Positions 3 through 51,742 of a stretch of DNA of 64,000 bases are shown in pieces. A program made the translations under genes and the position numbers. The stretch lies in NCBI RefSeq assembly GCF_050920415.1, contig NZ_CP169309.1. One strand, 5' to 3'. The notes below the pieces were generated by a model that was given only the letters and a program-made list of their open reading frames with translations, ran no database searches and was not told where the DNA came from. Positions within the stretch are counted from its first letter, which is position 1; every line of letters starts with the position of its first letter. Origin of the DNA: Escherichia coli (lineage in GTDB: Bacteria; Pseudomonadota; Gammaproteobacteria; Enterobacterales; Enterobacteriaceae).

Positions 3-1061
3 AGTGATGATGCATCCGGCTATCTGGATTTTTTCAAAGGCGAGATAGGAAAAACCCATCTGGCTCAGGAGCTGTGGACGCAGATTGATAACGGTCAGCT
101 GGCGCCTGATCTGGCTGAAATCAGGACGTCCATTACGGATGTCAGCAATGAAATCACACAGACCGTCAATAAGAAACTGGAAGACCAGAGTGCGGCAATT
201 CAGCAGATACAGAAGGTTCAGGTTGATACAAATAATAACCTGAACAGCATGTGGGCTGTGAAGCTGCAGCAGATGCAGGACGGACGCCTTTATATCGCGG
301 GTATTGGTGCCGGTATTGAGAACACCCCTGACGGCATGCAGAGTCAGGTGCTGCTGGCGGCGGACAGGATTGCGATGGTTAATCCTGCGAATGGCAACAC
401 AAAACCGATGTTTGTTGGTCAGGGCGATCAGATATTCATGAACGACGTGTTCCTGAAGCGCCTGACGGCCCCCACCATTACCAGCGGCGGCAATCCCCCG
501 GCCTTTTCCCTGACACCGGACGGAAAGCTGACGGCTAAAAATGCGGATATCAGTGGCAGTGTGAATGCGAACTCCGGGACGCTCAACAACGTCACGATTA
601 ATGAGAACTGTCAGATTAAGGGGAAACTGTCAGCCAATCAGATTGAAGGCGATATTGTCAAAACAGTGGGTAAGGCTTTCCCGCGGGACTCCCGGGCACC
701 GGAGCGGTGGCCATCAGGGACCATTACCGTCAGGATTTATGACGATCAGCCTTTTGACAGGCAAATTGTTATTCCAGCGGTGGCATTCTGCGGCGCTAAA
801 CATGAGCGGGAGAATAACGATATTTATTCGTCATGCCGCCTGATAGTGAAGAAAAATGGTGCTGAAATTTATAACCGTACCGCGCTGGATAATACGCTGA
901 TTTACAGTGGTGTTATTGATATGCCAGCTGGTCACGGCCACATGACGCTGGAGTTTTCGGTGTCAGCATGGCTGGTAAATGACTGGTATCCCACAGCAAG
1001 TATCAGCGATTTGCTGGTTGTGGTGATGAAGAAAGCCACCGCAGGCATCAGTATCAGCTGA
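3..1061 (+). CDS. Phage host-specificity / central tail fibre protein J, C-terminal part (5' end cut by window edge)
   Basis: Frame is open from position 3 to the stop at 1061; the translation resembles the lambda gpJ C-terminal region as recalled, and lom follows as in lambda. Confidence 0.8.
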
Positions 1062-1127
1062 ATTTTATAACCCCAATACGGGCGCCAGAAATGGCGCTTT
1101 TTTATTGCAGAAAAGCGAGAGGTAATT

Positions 1128-1727
1128 ATGCGTAAATTATGTGCTGTTATTCTGTCTGCAGTAGTCTGGCTGGTCGCCGCTGGTACGCCAGCGAGTGCAG
1201 CAGAGCATCAGTCCACACTAAGCGGCGGGTATCTTCAGTCCCATACTGATATGCCCGGAAACGATGACCTGAAGGGCATTAACGTGAAATACCGTTATGA
1301 ATTTACGGACACGCTGGGGCTGATTACGTCATTCAGTTATGCCAACGCTGAAGATGAGCAAAAAACGCATTACAGCGATACCCGCTGGCATGAAGATTCC
1401 GTGCGTAACCGCTGGTTCAGCGTGATGGCGGGGCCGTCTGTGCGCGTGAATGAATGGTTCAGCGCGTATGCGATGGCGGGTATGGCTTACAGCCGTGTTT
1501 CGACTTTCTCCGGAGATTATATCCGCGTAACTGACAACAAGGGGAAAAAGCACGATGTGCTGACCGGAAGTGATGACGGTCGCCACAGCAACACGTCTCT
1601 GGCGTGGGGGGCTGGCGTGCAGTTTAACCCGACCGAATCCGTGGCCATTGATATTGCTTATGAAGGCTCCGGCAGTGGTGACTGGCGCATTGACGGTTTC
1701 ATCGTGGGTGTCGGTTATAAATTCTGA
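1128..1727 (+). CDS. lom: Lom/Ail-family outer membrane beta-barrel protein (phage-encoded)
   Basis: 199 aa ORF with a signal peptide ([24 protein letters not shown]), aromatic C-terminus (GYKF), Shine-Dalgarno GAGAGG upstream, and position after J as in lambda. Confidence 0.85.
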
Positions 1728-1754
1728 TTAGCCAGGTAACACAGTGTTATGACA

Positions 1755-1781
1755 GCCCGCCGGGTTCAGGCGGGCTTTTTT
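1755..1781 (+). terminator. Rho-independent terminator after lom
   Basis: GC hairpin gcccgcc-gggttca-ggcgggc followed by a T-run. Confidence 0.6.
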
Positions 1782-1792
1782 GTGGGGTGAAT

Positions 1793-3883
1793 ATGGCAGT
1801 AAAGATTTCAGGTGTCCTGAAGGACGGAGCGGGTGAGCCTGTCGTAAACTGTGCGATTGAATTGCGTGCCAGAAGAACCAGTCCGACAGTTGTGGTTAAT
1901 ATTGTGGCAACCTGTCTTACGGGAAGTGATGGTGGGTATACTATTAATGCTGAGCCGGGATTTTATGATGTATTTTTGTCCCGCTCAGGGCATCCTCCTG
2001 TAAAGGCGGGGGAAATTTATGTTGCACCGACAGATGAGCCGGATACGCTGAATGCTTTTCTGGATGCACCAAAGGAGGGTGATTTACGCCCTGAGGTAAT
2101 GAAGCGTTTTGAGGAAATGATAAATACCGTTTTTCGCTTGTCTGAGCAGGTGGTCAGTGACAGGGAGAGAGCAGAAACAGCTGCTGATGATGCAATCAAT
2201 GCAGCAACATCTGCGGCGGTTAGTAAGGATGAGGCAGAAGAGCTAAAAAATCAGACACAGCAGAGCGCCGAAGCTGCAGCCGGAAACGCACAGCAGACGG
2301 CACAGGATGTGACGACAACCGCAACGGCCCGTGATGATGCGGAACGTTTTGCGGGTGAGGCAGAAAACAGCGCACAGTCATCAGGCACATCGCGGGATGA
2401 ATCAGTCGATGCCGCCGAACGTGCCCGCCTTTATCATAATGCCGCATCATCAGCTGCAACCAGCGCGGAAAATGCAGCAAATGCTGCACTCGGGCATGAA
2501 AATAACGCTGCCGAATACGCCCGACAGGCTAAAGACAGCCAGGATGCAGGTGCAGACAATGCGCAGGAAGCGAAACAGTACAGGGATGAGGCGCAGCAGA
2601 TAGTTGATGACCTGAATGCAACAAATGCCAGCACGACAGAAAAAGGTCTGGTGCAACTGTGTAGTGATACGGACAACGACAGCGATGAACTGGCTGCCAC
2701 GCCAAAGGCTGTCAAAGCCGTCATGGACGAAACGAAAACAAAAGCGCCACTGGACAGCCCGGCCTTCACCGGCACCCCAACCACCCCAACCCCACCGGAT
2801 GATGCCGCCGGTCTGGAAGCAGCGAACGCAGCGTTTGTGCGCAAACTGCTTGCTGCGCTGGTTGGCTCATCGCCGGAAGTTCTGGACACCCTGAACGAGC
2901 TGGCAGCGGCGCTGGGCAATGACCCGAACTTTGCGACGACAATCACAAACGCGCTGGCAGGCAAACAACCGCTTAATGACGTCTTAACGGCAATCAGCGC
3001 ACTGACGCAACGGGCAGATAATCTTCTGTACTTCAATACGGACGGGAATGCCTCACTGTCTCCGCTGTCAGAGAAGGCCCGCGCATTACTGGCGCATGAC
3101 ACGGCTGAAGCCATGCGCACGGAGCTTGAGCTGAACGCGGCTGCGACGATGGAACCCCAGAGTGATATCCGTGACCGCACACCGGGCAGGCTGGCCCTGT
3201 CCGGGATGTATGGGTTTGGACAGGCATTCACCAGCGCCGAAGCTCTGTCATTTAACGGACAGGCTGATTTCGTTATATGGCTGCAGACAGTCACCCCGGG
3301 GCGTTATGCGGTCAGTATTGCGGACTCCTCCACGCTGCTGAAGGGGACCACGAAATTTAACGGTATCATTGATGTGATGTGGTCACCGTCTGATAACGAC
3401 GAATCAGACACGGCGCGTAAATTCAAAACGCTGCTGTACTACAACCAGTATTACGAGGATGAGCACAGCATACATTGTATGCGTTATCGCTACAGTGGTA
3501 ACAGCTGGAATGCAACATCAAGCCTTATTGTGTATGACGGCAACTCCCTGGCATATCTGATGTCCTCAACCGCCGGTAATGGTCCGTTCTCATATTACAA
3601 ATACCCGGCCGTCGGTGTGCCGATAATGGCGGTATATCAGGGAGAAAGTTTTGGTGAAAATGCTTCTCTGGGACTCGGTGATACTGTGCCGGGTTCCCGT
3701 CTTGGTCCTCTGGCCATGAGTGCACAGGTTAGTGATACAGGGACATACGCATCCTCACCGCAGGTTGTGATTGGCGGTGCCGGTGAATACAACTTCCCCG
3801 GTCGTTACACGGCGCTTTCGGGCCTGGGTAACAATTATGGTACTCAGCGTGGCTTTATCGGTCTTTTTGTACGCATTGAGTAA
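1793..3883 (+). CDS. stf: Side tail fibre protein Stf (intact, about 696 aa)
   Basis: N-terminus MAVKISGVLKDG matches the lambda Stf start as recalled; Ala/Glu-rich repetitive middle region; divergent C-terminal receptor-binding part. Confidence 0.8.
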   Translation: MAVKISGVLKDGAGEPVVNCAIELRARRTSPTVVVNIVATCLTGSDGGYTINAEPGFYDVFLSRSGHPPVKAGEIYVAPTDEPDTLNAFLDAPKEGDLRPEVMKRFEEMINTVFRLSEQVVSDRERAETAADDAINAATSAAVSKDEAEELKNQTQQSAEAAAGNAQQTAQDVTTTATARDDAERFAGEAENSAQSSGTSRDESVDAAERARLYHNAASSAATSAENAANAALGHENNAAEYARQAKDSQDAGADNAQEAKQYRDEAQQIVDDLNATNASTTEKGLVQLCSDTDNDSDELAATPKAVKAVMDETKTKAPLDSPAFTGTPTTPTPPDDAAGLEAANAAFVRKLLAALVGSSPEVLDTLNELAAALGNDPNFATTITNALAGKQPLNDVLTAISALTQRADNLLYFNTDGNASLSPLSEKARALLAHDTAEAMRTELELNAAATMEPQSDIRDRTPGRLALSGMYGFGQAFTSAEALSFNGQADFVIWLQTVTPGRYAVSIADSSTLLKGTTKFNGIIDVMWSPSDNDESDTARKFKTLLYYNQYYEDEHSIHCMRYRYSGNSWNATSSLIVYDGNSLAYLMSSTAGNGPFSYYKYPAVGVPIMAVYQGESFGENASLGLGDTVPGSRLGPLAMSAQVSDTGTYASSPQVVIGGAGEYNFPGRYTALSGLGNNYGTQRGFIGLFVRIE

Positions 3884-3897
3884 TGAGGAAATCAGGC

Positions 3898-4470
3898 ATG
3901 AAAATCAGAGCGGTGAAAGGCATCAGAAACGCACATTATCTTGAAAATGGTGCGGTTGACTGCGAGGTGTTATTTGAAGGTGAAACGGAGTTCGCCCTGT
4001 ATACTGCCATACAGGATGATATGGCCCCGACAGGCCAGCATGTCTGGCAGGAGCTGCAAAGCGGGAAATGGGGCGAAATCGCCCCGTTCACCGTCACGCC
4101 GGAACTTATTGCAGCGGCAAAGGATGCCAAAAGGCGGGAAATTGAGGCATGGCGCGACAGTCAGGAAAACGTTGAGTTTATTTTCACGTTTGATGGCCGT
4201 CGTTTTGATGGCGGAAAAACCTCGCAGTCACGCCTTGCGCCCGTGGTTGCAACAGCGCAGGCCGGACTGCTTCCGGAGGGTTTTTTCTGGACTGATGCGG
4301 ATAATAACAACGTCGTACTGACCAGGGAGAAACTTATTGCGCTGAACGATGCCATGATGGTGGCCATGGTGGCGGAGGGCTTTAAAATCCACGAACGCCA
4401 GCGCGAGATGAAGGAACAACTGAATAATCTGAATGACTTGGCTTCAATTCGAGCGCTTGACGTTACGTAA
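3898..4470 (+). CDS. Putative tail fibre assembly/chaperone protein (Tfa-like by position; sequence diverged from lambda Tfa)
   Basis: About 190 aa ORF immediately after stf, with a TAATGA stop/start overlap at 3881-3885 and a GAGGA ribosome-binding site before the ATG at 3898; assignment is by position and size only. Confidence 0.45.
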   Translation: MKIRAVKGIRNAHYLENGAVDCEVLFEGETEFALYTAIQDDMAPTGQHVWQELQSGKWGEIAPFTVTPELIAAAKDAKRREIEAWRDSQENVEFIFTFDGRRFDGGKTSQSRLAPVVATAQAGLLPEGFFWTDADNNNVVLTREKLIALNDAMMVAMVAEGFKIHERQREMKEQLNNLNDLASIRALDVT

Positions 4471-7470: not shown

Positions 7471-7914
7471 ATGACTTATAAGCGTCCCGTTTCTATTCTG
7501 GTGGTTATTTATGCGCAAGATACGAAACGGGTGCTGATGTTACAGCGGCGTGATGATCCCGATTTCTGGCAGTCAGTAACCGGCAGTGTGGAAGAGGGGG
7601 AAACCGCGCCGCAAGCCGCCATGCGCGAAGTAAAGGAAGAGGTCACCATTGATGTTGTCGCTGAACAACTGACCTTAATTGACTGTCAGCGCACGGTGGA
7701 GTTTGAAATTTTTTCACATTTACGTCATCGCTATGCGCCGGGCGTAACGCGTAATACGGAATCTTGGTTCTGTCTTGCACTCCCGCACGAGCGCCAGATC
7801 GTTTTCACTGAACATCTGGCCTACAAGTGGCTTGATGCGCATGCTGCGGCGGCGCTCACAAAGTCATGGAGCAACCGGCAGGCGATTGAACAGTTTGTAA
7901 TTAACGCTGCCTGA
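7471..7914 (+). CDS. nudB: Dihydroneopterin triphosphate pyrophosphatase (Nudix)
   Basis: Nudix box [21 protein letters not shown]; position after aspS; exact start codon uncertain. Confidence 0.9.
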
Positions 7915-28792: not shown

Positions 28793-28882
28793 CCGTCGGC
28801 GGATGCGGCGCGAGTGCCTGGTCCGCCCTACAAGGCACCTCAATCGTAGGCCTGGGAAGACGCAACAGCGTCGCATCGGGCA
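28793..28882. repeat. BIME: two REP-like palindromes after yebF
   Basis: REP-type palindromes at about 28793-28840 and 28846-28882 (gtaggcctgggaagacgcaacagcgtcgcatcgggc). Confidence 0.5.
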
Positions 28883-35510: not shown

Positions 35511-35750
35511 ACATTTAAGCTGATGACCACCACGCTTTTTATTGACCATTTTGCACGCAAACTGGAAAACCTGGCGTCGTCATCTATTCTTAAAGGGCAA
35601 GGCAACTAAGCCTGCATTAATGCCAACTTTTAGCGCACGGCTCTCTCCCAAGAGCCATTTCCCTGGACCGAATACAGGAATCGTGTTCGGTCTCTTTTTA
35701 TCTGTTAAAAGCCAGAAGCATTCCCTTCGCTGACTTTATAGTCAACCATA
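35470..35750 (-). ncRNA. ryeA: sRNA RyeA (SraC), antisense to SdsR
   Basis: Known antisense partner of SdsR in the pphA-yebY intergenic region; ends are approximate. Confidence 0.4.
35598..35700 (+). ncRNA. sdsR: sRNA SdsR (RyeB), RpoS-dependent
   Basis: Sequence gcaaggcaactaagcctgcattaatgcc ... ggaccgaatacaggaatcgtgttcggtctcttttt matches SdsR as recalled, with terminator hairpin and T-run at 35666-35699. Confidence 0.75.
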
Positions 35751-50585: not shown

Positions 50586-51211
50586 AATTCATCCTGATTA
50601 TACGCACTGTCATGGTGCAACTGCTTCAAATTAAAACTCTGGTCTGACTTCAAATAATTATCATATTATTTATTTGCGTAACGGGATATCAGAAAAAGAT
50701 ATTTAGCCCATTAATTTATTAGGATGTTTACATCGGATTTGTGATTAAGCGTGTTATTATTTATTAGCGAAACGTTTCTCTCTTGATTTTTTTGCGCATT
50801 CATCAATTTTTCTTATTTTAAATTTACAATACCTTTGGCGATTGACTTCTCTTTGGGGTGATTGATAGCCGTTAACTGACTGTTTTATGAGAAAAAGTGA
50901 TATAACTTTTTATTCATTGCATAGCAGAAAATGTGATATTGCACGCACTATGTAATAACTTCTCCCATTGGCCTGGAACAACTGAACTTATTGAACTATG
51001 TTAGAAAATACGTCAGTTTAAGTATCTGCCTGAACTGGCAAGGTTAAGCACAATGATATATCGGCGCGTATTCCGTTGCATAAGTGTGCAAAAAAAGTGG
51101 AAGACGTATCGAGATTTGTGCGTCTGATCGAGACATGTTTAAAAATGGCTTGCCATAATTAACGTTGTATGTGATAACAGATTTCGGGTTAAACGAGGTA
51201 CAGTTCTGTTT

Positions 51212-51355
51212 ATGTGTGGCATTTTCAGTAAAGAAGTCCTGAGTAAACACGTTGACGTTGAATACCGCTTCTCTGCCGAGCCTTATATTGGTGCCTCATG
51301 CAGTAATGTGTCAGTTTTATCTATGTTATGCCTGCGGGCGAAGAAAACAATCTAA
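51212..51355 (+). CDS. yobF: Small protein YobF (co-transcribed with cspC)
   Basis: Translation [47 protein letters not shown] (47 aa), directly upstream of cspC. Confidence 0.75.
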
Positions 51356-51367
51356 GGAATTTTTCAA

Positions 51368-51577
51368 ATGGCAAAGATTAAAGGTCAGGTTAAGTGGTTC
51401 AACGAGTCTAAAGGTTTTGGCTTCATTACTCCGGCTGATGGCAGCAAAGACGTGTTCGTACACTTCTCCGCTATCCAGGGTAATGGCTTCAAAACTCTGG
51501 CTGAAGGTCAGAACGTTGAGTTCGAAATTCAGGACGGCCAGAAAGGTCCGGCAGCTGTTAACGTAACAGCTATCTGA
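51368..51577 (+). CDS. cspC: Cold-shock-domain protein CspC
   Basis: 69 aa with RNP motifs KGFGFI and VFVHF. Confidence 0.95.
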
Positions 51578-51623
51578 TCGAATCCACTGATCTGAAGTGT
51601 GAATACGCTTCAATCTCGCTATA

Positions 51624-51649
51624 AAGCCTCGTCGAATGCGAGGCTTTTT
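51624..51649 (+). terminator. Rho-independent terminator after cspC
   Basis: Hairpin aagcctcg-tcgaatg-cgaggctt followed by TTTT. Confidence 0.65.
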
Positions 51650-51742
51650 ACTTTGCTTTATCTTCGCTCCTGGCATTCGGATATTTGCCCGCCGCGTGAT
51701 TCGCGTTACACTTGCGGCCTTTAGTATCCTGCCGGAGTTGTC

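Follow-up and report, generated by a model that had tools for sequence, protein, structure and literature searches.

The window analysed here, 64,000 nucleotides in all, is a segment of the Escherichia coli chromosome whose first part is the right end of a lambdoid prophage, as supported by gene names from BLAST matches and by matches to RyeA/SdsR. Prophage ORFs encode the C-terminus of a tail tip protein J (249-1061, plus strand) and a Lom/OmpX-like outer membrane protein (1128-1727, plus strand); two others, of 698 and 195 amino acids (within 249-4470, plus strand), had no NCBIfam match and probably encode a tail fibre with its assembly protein. After the prophage we take the gene order, from the K-12 map, to be aspS, ruvCAB, znuBCA, lpxM, pykA, hexR, zwf, edd, eda, purT, yebG, yebF, yebE and ptrB, presumably followed by further genes to manXYZ and pabB. 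Two Rfam matches above gathering score, SraC/RyeA (minus strand) overlapping SdsR/RyeB (plus strand) at 35559-35703 and a cspA-type thermoregulator 5' UTR at 51192-51652 (plus strand), are ordinary for this chromosomal region.

Five REP elements were found in the window, namely the two under study here, S1 and S2, and three others, all carrying the head motif with no or one mismatch and having tails in ...GGCCTAC. S1 is a well formed Y-type REP at 19673-19706 on the minus strand, between lpxM and pykA (minus-strand sequence, 19706-19673, GCCGGATGCGGCGAAAACGCCTCATCCGGCCTAC), with the tail ATCCGGCCTAC at 19683-19673. Its single-stranded form is predicted to fold into a strong hairpin of -15.2 kcal/mol (z = -5.7). 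S2 is a partly decayed Z-type REP at 28846-28881, also on the minus strand and 3' of yebF (minus-strand sequence, 28881-28846, GCCCGATGCGACGCTGTTGCGTCTTCCCAGGCCTAC), with the tail CCCAGGCCTAC at 28856-28846. Directly after the yebF stop codon, S2 and a plus-strand partner REP at 28798-28831 (tail GTCCGCCCTAC at 28821-28831, three mismatches to the IS621 target) are arranged tail-to-tail across a 14-nt linker, and the two make up a BIME-like pair within the spacer between yebF and yebE. The remaining REPs are an occupied Z2-type element on the plus strand at 13222-13256 and one on the minus strand at 14553-14586, which adjoins the right end of an IS621 copy and has the tail ATCCGACCTAC at 14553-14563 (two mismatches).

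REP membership was judged by an imperfect palindrome of ~35 nt with the head GCC(G/T)GATGCG(A/G)CG and a tail ending in CTAC, and both S1 and S2 have these features. They resemble the known REP/BIME family (Y, Z1, Z2) in being such palindromes with the head GCC(G/T)GATGCG and the tail (C/A)GGCCTAC, and in their extragenic position just 3' of stop codons, S1 singly between lpxM and pyk, and S2 after yebF in an inverted pair with 28798-28831. That the family is repetitive was evident from a Y-type REP flank, which matched 148,268 places in 5,425 genomes. S2 differs from the family in having lost most of the lower stem (TTCCCAGGC versus GCCCGATG) and in folding little better than shuffled sequence: with the upper stem alone retained, its predicted fold has -6.1 kcal/mol (z = -1.9), and 9 of 200 shuffles fold equally well, so that in these predictions S2 is marginal or decayed as a REP stem-loop. 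Both elements terminate in GGCCTAC because this is the conserved REP tail. As the initial annotation had proposed, both lie where it placed them and carry the ggcCTac core on the strand opposite to the IS621-occupied REP, the two sequences and the IS621 junctions being confirmed here. The 7-mer as such is not enriched, six copies being present in the window versus 4.4 expected (24 of 100 shuffles reach six), with four of the six in coding sequence; what is non-random about GGCCTAC is its position as the tail of REP-family repeats.

The insertion sequence itself is an IS621-family (IS110) element of 1,279 bp at 13257-14535 on the plus strand, 97.8% identical to canonical IS621, that sits between ruvB and znuB in the Z2-type REP. 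At its left junction, ...CTTATCAGGC-CT is followed by TGTATTATCC (core sequence ATCAGGCCT|TGTATT), the REP providing the left target and core as GCCTGATGCGACGCTGTTCGCGTCTTATCAGGC-CT; at its right junction, ...ACAGTAT-CT|AC (sequence ACAGTATCT|AC), the right target AC occupies 14536-14537. The insertion thus reads LT-CT-RD ... LD-CT-RT (ATCAGGC-CT-TG ... ACAGTAT-CT-AC) and has no inverted repeats. The occupied target is identical to natural target TBL_ATCGGGCCTAC_seq2 of the Durrant supplement, and the RefSeq annotation of this locus in strain MFDS1022581 reads "IS110-like element IS621 family transposase". The bridge RNA region (13271-13448, plus strand, 178 nt) was identified by aligning it with the 177-nt bridge RNA already published, an Rfam scan of the window having matched no bridge-RNA family; 174 positions are identical in a 180-column alignment that includes extra end bases. 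The left target guide with core, AUCGGGCCU (13320-13328, plus strand), and the right target guide GUAG (13348-13351, plus strand) are identical to those published, and the donor loop shows no difference. The target loop differs from the published one at three places, all in its small central hairpin: 13330 (G to A), 13335 (C to T) and 13337 (an extra C). The first converts a G.U pair to A-U and lengthens the stem, with the guides unaffected, and the window and published RNAs are predicted to share one architecture (-64.7 versus -64.5 kcal/mol).

The recombinase gene of this copy (13449-14428, plus strand) is divided into ORFs at 13449-14201 and 14198-14428 by a -1 frameshift, the G-run at 14187-14189 having three G versus four in intact copies (a one-G deletion). 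The product is 250 amino acids ending at 14201 versus 326 when intact, with the other 76 in another frame, so that the window copy lacks the intact recombinase of an autonomous element. DEDD and Transposase_20 domains are both found, the latter (PF02371) being cut at position 52 of its 87-position profile. At the same locus in MFDS1022581 there are four G, the 326-residue protein is intact and PF02371 is complete; the two sequences differ at three positions in 5.3 kb, two of which are homopolymer indels. The frameshift may therefore be genuine or may reflect a sequencing error in the homopolymer, and the window copy may be non-autonomous owing to it. In near-identical strains the junction search matched 10-26 places in each genome, for the most part left ends of IS621 copies elsewhere, and recombinase could thus be provided in trans. 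A subvariant of ~100% identical copies, 1,280 bp when intact, is common to strains MFDS1022581, N96 and RMDEC465; of the other genomes with a ruvB-znuB copy of IS621, most match the junction at only 91%.

A preference of IS621 for REP tails was reportedly described by Choi in 2003. Both REP targeting by IS621 and the mismatch rules of its bridge RNA are already known, the REP tails since 2003 and the RNA-guided basis since 2024. The target loop of IS621 encodes ATCGGGCCTAC, and it recognises the natural target ATCAGGCCTAC by forming an rG:dT pair at position 4 (Durrant 2024, PMC11208160). A genome-wide insertion assay in E. coli BL21(DE3) recovered 173 sites, 144 of them in REPs; 131 of the 173 (129 sites ATCAGGCCTAC and 2 sites ATCGGGCCTAC) received 96.2% of insertions, and the 42 non-cognate sites received 3.8% (PMC11208160). 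Off-target insertions with one or two mismatches occur, and the published screen found mismatch tolerance to be low (PMC11208160). The premise of the initial annotation, RNA-guided targeting that tolerates mismatches, was thus right in kind, with only some tolerance published. It was also reported that GCA after the target favours extended right-guide pairing, linked to the most-used sites (PMC11208160).

For comparison with these rules, every 11-mer of the window with a CT core was scored against the guide AUCGGGC, with either purine allowed at position 4. S1 and S2 are like the natural target ATCAGGCCTAC in the CT core (positions 8-9), the right target AC (positions 10-11), GGC at positions 5-7 and membership of the REP family. 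Neither matches the full seven-base left target: S1 has C at position 4 and S2 has CC rather than AT at positions 1-2. Since the guide G reads the natural A by rG:dT wobble, the C of S1 is a true mismatch, of the rG:dG type and not the tolerated rG:dT, a distinction that the initial annotation had overlooked. Unlike the most-used IS621 sites, both REPs are without the downstream GCA, being flanked by AGT (S1) and GAT (S2). No perfect unoccupied site was found in the window by the CT-core scan. There are two one-mismatch sites, S1 and, at the same rank, ATCTGGCCTAC at 7814-7824 (plus strand), which is outside any REP and within a coding sequence that we take from the K-12 map to be nudB. S2 is among 16 two-mismatch sites. 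A simple calculation gives ~18 sites with two or fewer mismatches as the chance expectation for 128 kb of two-strand sequence, and since the ~16 two-mismatch sites are about the number so expected, S2 by sequence would pair with the guide only as well as coding DNA does at sites that match by chance. Scoring against the 11-mer target, which the initial annotation had put forward as a check, thus left S1 joint-best and S2 without distinction. The site at 7814-7824 was absent from its list.

Occupancy of the two REPs was surveyed by BLAST in 5,426 complete E. coli genomes, with chimeric left junctions of 300 nt, one half of each (150 nt) being flank up to and including ...GGCCT and the other half (150 nt) the left end of the IS. 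The real junction at the ruvB-znuB REP, as positive control, was found in 70 of the 5,426, and junction searches detected ~13,000 IS621 left ends elsewhere. The chimeric-junction search of the same 5,426 genomes found IS621 at S1 (lpxM-pykA) in none and at S2 (yebF-yebE) in none. Sequences diagnostic of such insertions would be, for S1, CGCCTCATCCGGCCTTGTATTATCCCTCC at the left junction and ACAGTATCTACAGTTCAATG at the right and, for S2, GCGTCTTC[CT]CAGGCCTTGTATTATCCCTCC at the left and ACAGTATCTACGATTG[AT]GG at the right. The zero at S1 is unremarkable and is weak evidence against usability, as ~2 occupied genomes are expected per site if ~3% of ~13,000 copies lie on ~150-200 ATCCGGCCTAC sites, and as inheritance is clonal. 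In the part of the Durrant natural-target lists that was accessible, the flanks of S1 and S2 were absent and the ruvB-znuB target was listed.

The two spacers are themselves largely intact. In 5,424 genomes nothing interrupts the S2 spacer; in strain D10 an IS1A lies in it, ~70 bp from the REP (~28924 in window coordinates) and clear of the GGCCTAC tail. The five other strains compared (K-12 W3110, SE15, an O157:H7 strain, HSP60 and D10) all have CTCAGGCCTAC as the S2 11-mer, with a single mismatch at position 1, and this commoner allele, despite its better match to the guide, is likewise unoccupied in the genomes surveyed. REL606, PA45B and strain 774 retain the 11-mer of S1, and the lpxM-pykA spacer is uninterrupted, with the REP kept, in 4,937 genomes. 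In ~488 of the 5,426 this spacer (19583-19713 in the window) is split. Hidden IS621 copies were considered for these, and the two examined, IAI1 and TW10690, contained unrelated DNA with the S1 REP missing. Four genes were seen in the IAI1 island, for a glycoside hydrolase 13, an amidohydrolase, an alpha/beta hydrolase and a Nif3-like protein; the TW10690 spacer holds a GH38 fragment and an IS5-family element.

These spacers also bear on whether S1 is primarily the target of a different element, either a sibling IS110 with the loop ATCCGGCCTAC, a REP-associated tyrosine transposase or an IS1397-type insertion sequence. In the accessible part of the Durrant supplement, 245 natural targets are listed for a sibling with the target loop ATCCGGCCTAC, mostly Y-type REPs, and they include CGCCTCATCCGGCCTAC tails resembling that of S1, which would fit such a role. 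However, the left end of the sibling was found in none of the 5,426 complete E. coli genomes, nor any junction of it with S1, the REP is uninterrupted in all 4,937 genomes that keep S1, and the two examined among the ~488 differing genomes have an island or an IS5 element where the REP is missing. The sibling at S1 was rejected on its absence from complete E. coli genomes, and because of that absence it must reside in other Enterobacteriaceae; use of S1 chiefly by any of these other elements is considered improbable.

How near-cognate sites are used by natural IS621 copies was revealed in part by the survey itself, in which the best partial matches to the S1 chimera were IS621 copies in other Y-type REPs. 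Insertions were found at ATCCGGCCT in the Y-type REP of hypF-norW in 12 genomes and of ppc-argE in at least 2, and at zntA-tusA of RMDEC465 at ATCTGGCCT, of the ATCTGGCCTAC class. The hypF-norW and ppc-argE REPs have the same 11-mer as S1 and the same Y-type architecture, and yet are occupied whereas S1 is occupied in none. Two such copies at ATCCGGCCT in Y-type REPs (L002 and L004) carry a canonical bridge RNA. It could be argued that neither S1 nor S2 is usable at all, any non-wobble mismatch to the left guide abolishing recombination in a REP context, as would be consistent with both being empty in every genome examined and with the low mismatch tolerance of the published screen (PMC11208160). 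The natural copies with canonical bridge RNA at ATCCGGCCT, one such insertion being present in 12 genomes, contradict this for the class to which S1 belongs by its identical 11-mer, and complete unusability of both sites is judged very unlikely.

A scan of metagenomes gave 65 IS621 left junctions representing 31 unique contexts. Of these contexts 18 were ATCAGGCCT versus 2 of ATCCGGCCT (the ATCCGGCCTAC class), with single contexts of ATCCGACCT, ATCGGGCCT, ACCGGGCCT and others, and none of the 31 was mismatched at positions 1 and 2 together. Unoccupied ATCCGGCCTAC and ATCAGGCCTAC contexts numbered 11 each in the same metagenome DNA. From these small samples (31 unique junctions, and 576 kb of partly redundant DNA) we infer that per-site use of the ATCCGGCCTAC class is roughly a tenth or less of that of cognate REPs. 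The IS621 left end had no match in the species-representative genomes scanned. The accessible part of the Durrant supplement has ATCAGGCCTAC in 596 target sequences file-wide, versus 834 targets in the IS621-loop group, and within that group at least 3 targets of ATCCGGCCTAC, with a ceiling of roughly 30 reached by subtraction and extrapolation from one of 13 file parts. In the same accessible part CTCAGGCCTAC is listed once and ATCTGGCCTAC seven times, and the ATCCGACCTAC class is represented by seq833, in addition to the ATCCGACCT junctions in metagenomes. A natural target of the S2 type, CCCAGGCCTAC, was found neither in the genome or metagenome data nor among the Durrant targets in the 200 of 222 supplementary files that were available as text.

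The initial annotation had gone further than candidacy and predicted that both REPs are hotspots for secondary IS621 insertion through mismatch tolerance. The off-target insertions with one or two mismatches in the published assay (PMC11208160), and the natural insertions at the ATCCGGCCTAC, ATCTGGCCTAC and ATCCGACCTAC classes, would be in keeping with such use. Nevertheless, the counts of 0 at S1 and 0 at S2 versus 70 at the perfectly matching REP of the same window, the small non-cognate share of published insertions, the chance-level guide match of S2 and the missing CCCAGGCCTAC target in the files available as text argue strongly against it. The survey of genomes, which the initial annotation had itself proposed, gave the outcome that it had named beforehand as speaking against hotspots, and this reading is now regarded as extremely unlikely. 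As candidate secondary sites the two fare differently: S1 retains that standing, its class being used naturally though rarely, and S2 loses it with two mismatches and a match at chance level.

The preferred reading, to which we assign a probability of roughly 85%, is that S1 and S2 are ordinary REPs that nearly match the IS621 target and that neither is a hotspot, S1 being a rare secondary target at best and S2 a poor one. The target loop of the bridge RNA (AUCGGGC-CU ... GUAG) would have evolved to read the REP tail in its Z2 form, ATCAGGC-CT-AC. With its non-wobble mismatch at position 4, S1 would fall in the class used at the reduced per-site rate given above; with mismatches at positions 1 and 2, S2 would offer the guide only a chance-level match. 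Insertion at S1 would thus be possible but rare, and would place an element in inverted orientation relative to the resident copy, which with its frameshifted recombinase would be mobile only with recombinase from other genomic copies. S1 is accordingly a plausible but rare secondary site, and S2 is no meaningful candidate. The anatomy, mismatch counts, occupancy and class use in this account come from the present analysis; the relative rates and the mechanism we infer, the mechanism from published work. New here is the survey of natural genomes, in which two near-cognate REPs are empty and 70 genomes carry an insertion in a cognate REP at a distance of 5 kb. The survey agrees with the published specificity and suggests a rough natural penalty of ~ten-fold or more for a non-wobble mismatch at position 4, and it indicates that a shared GGCCTAC 7-mer is insufficient as a predictor of insertion sites.

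The changes in the target-loop hairpin of the resident subvariant could conceivably relax specificity at position 4 or in the distal guide, although we hold this to be highly improbable. Were it so, Y-type REPs like S1 would be real secondary targets in this lineage, and inverted IS pairs could drive inversions around ruvAB-znu-pykA. Finally, the flanks used in the survey differ in their conservation. The ruvB 3' end with its REP flank (150 nt) was matched by megablast in 3,258 of the 5,426 genomes, mostly at 80-95% identity, and the pykA and yebF flanks in 5,425; the ruvB-znuB spacer seems to be unusually variable among lineages.
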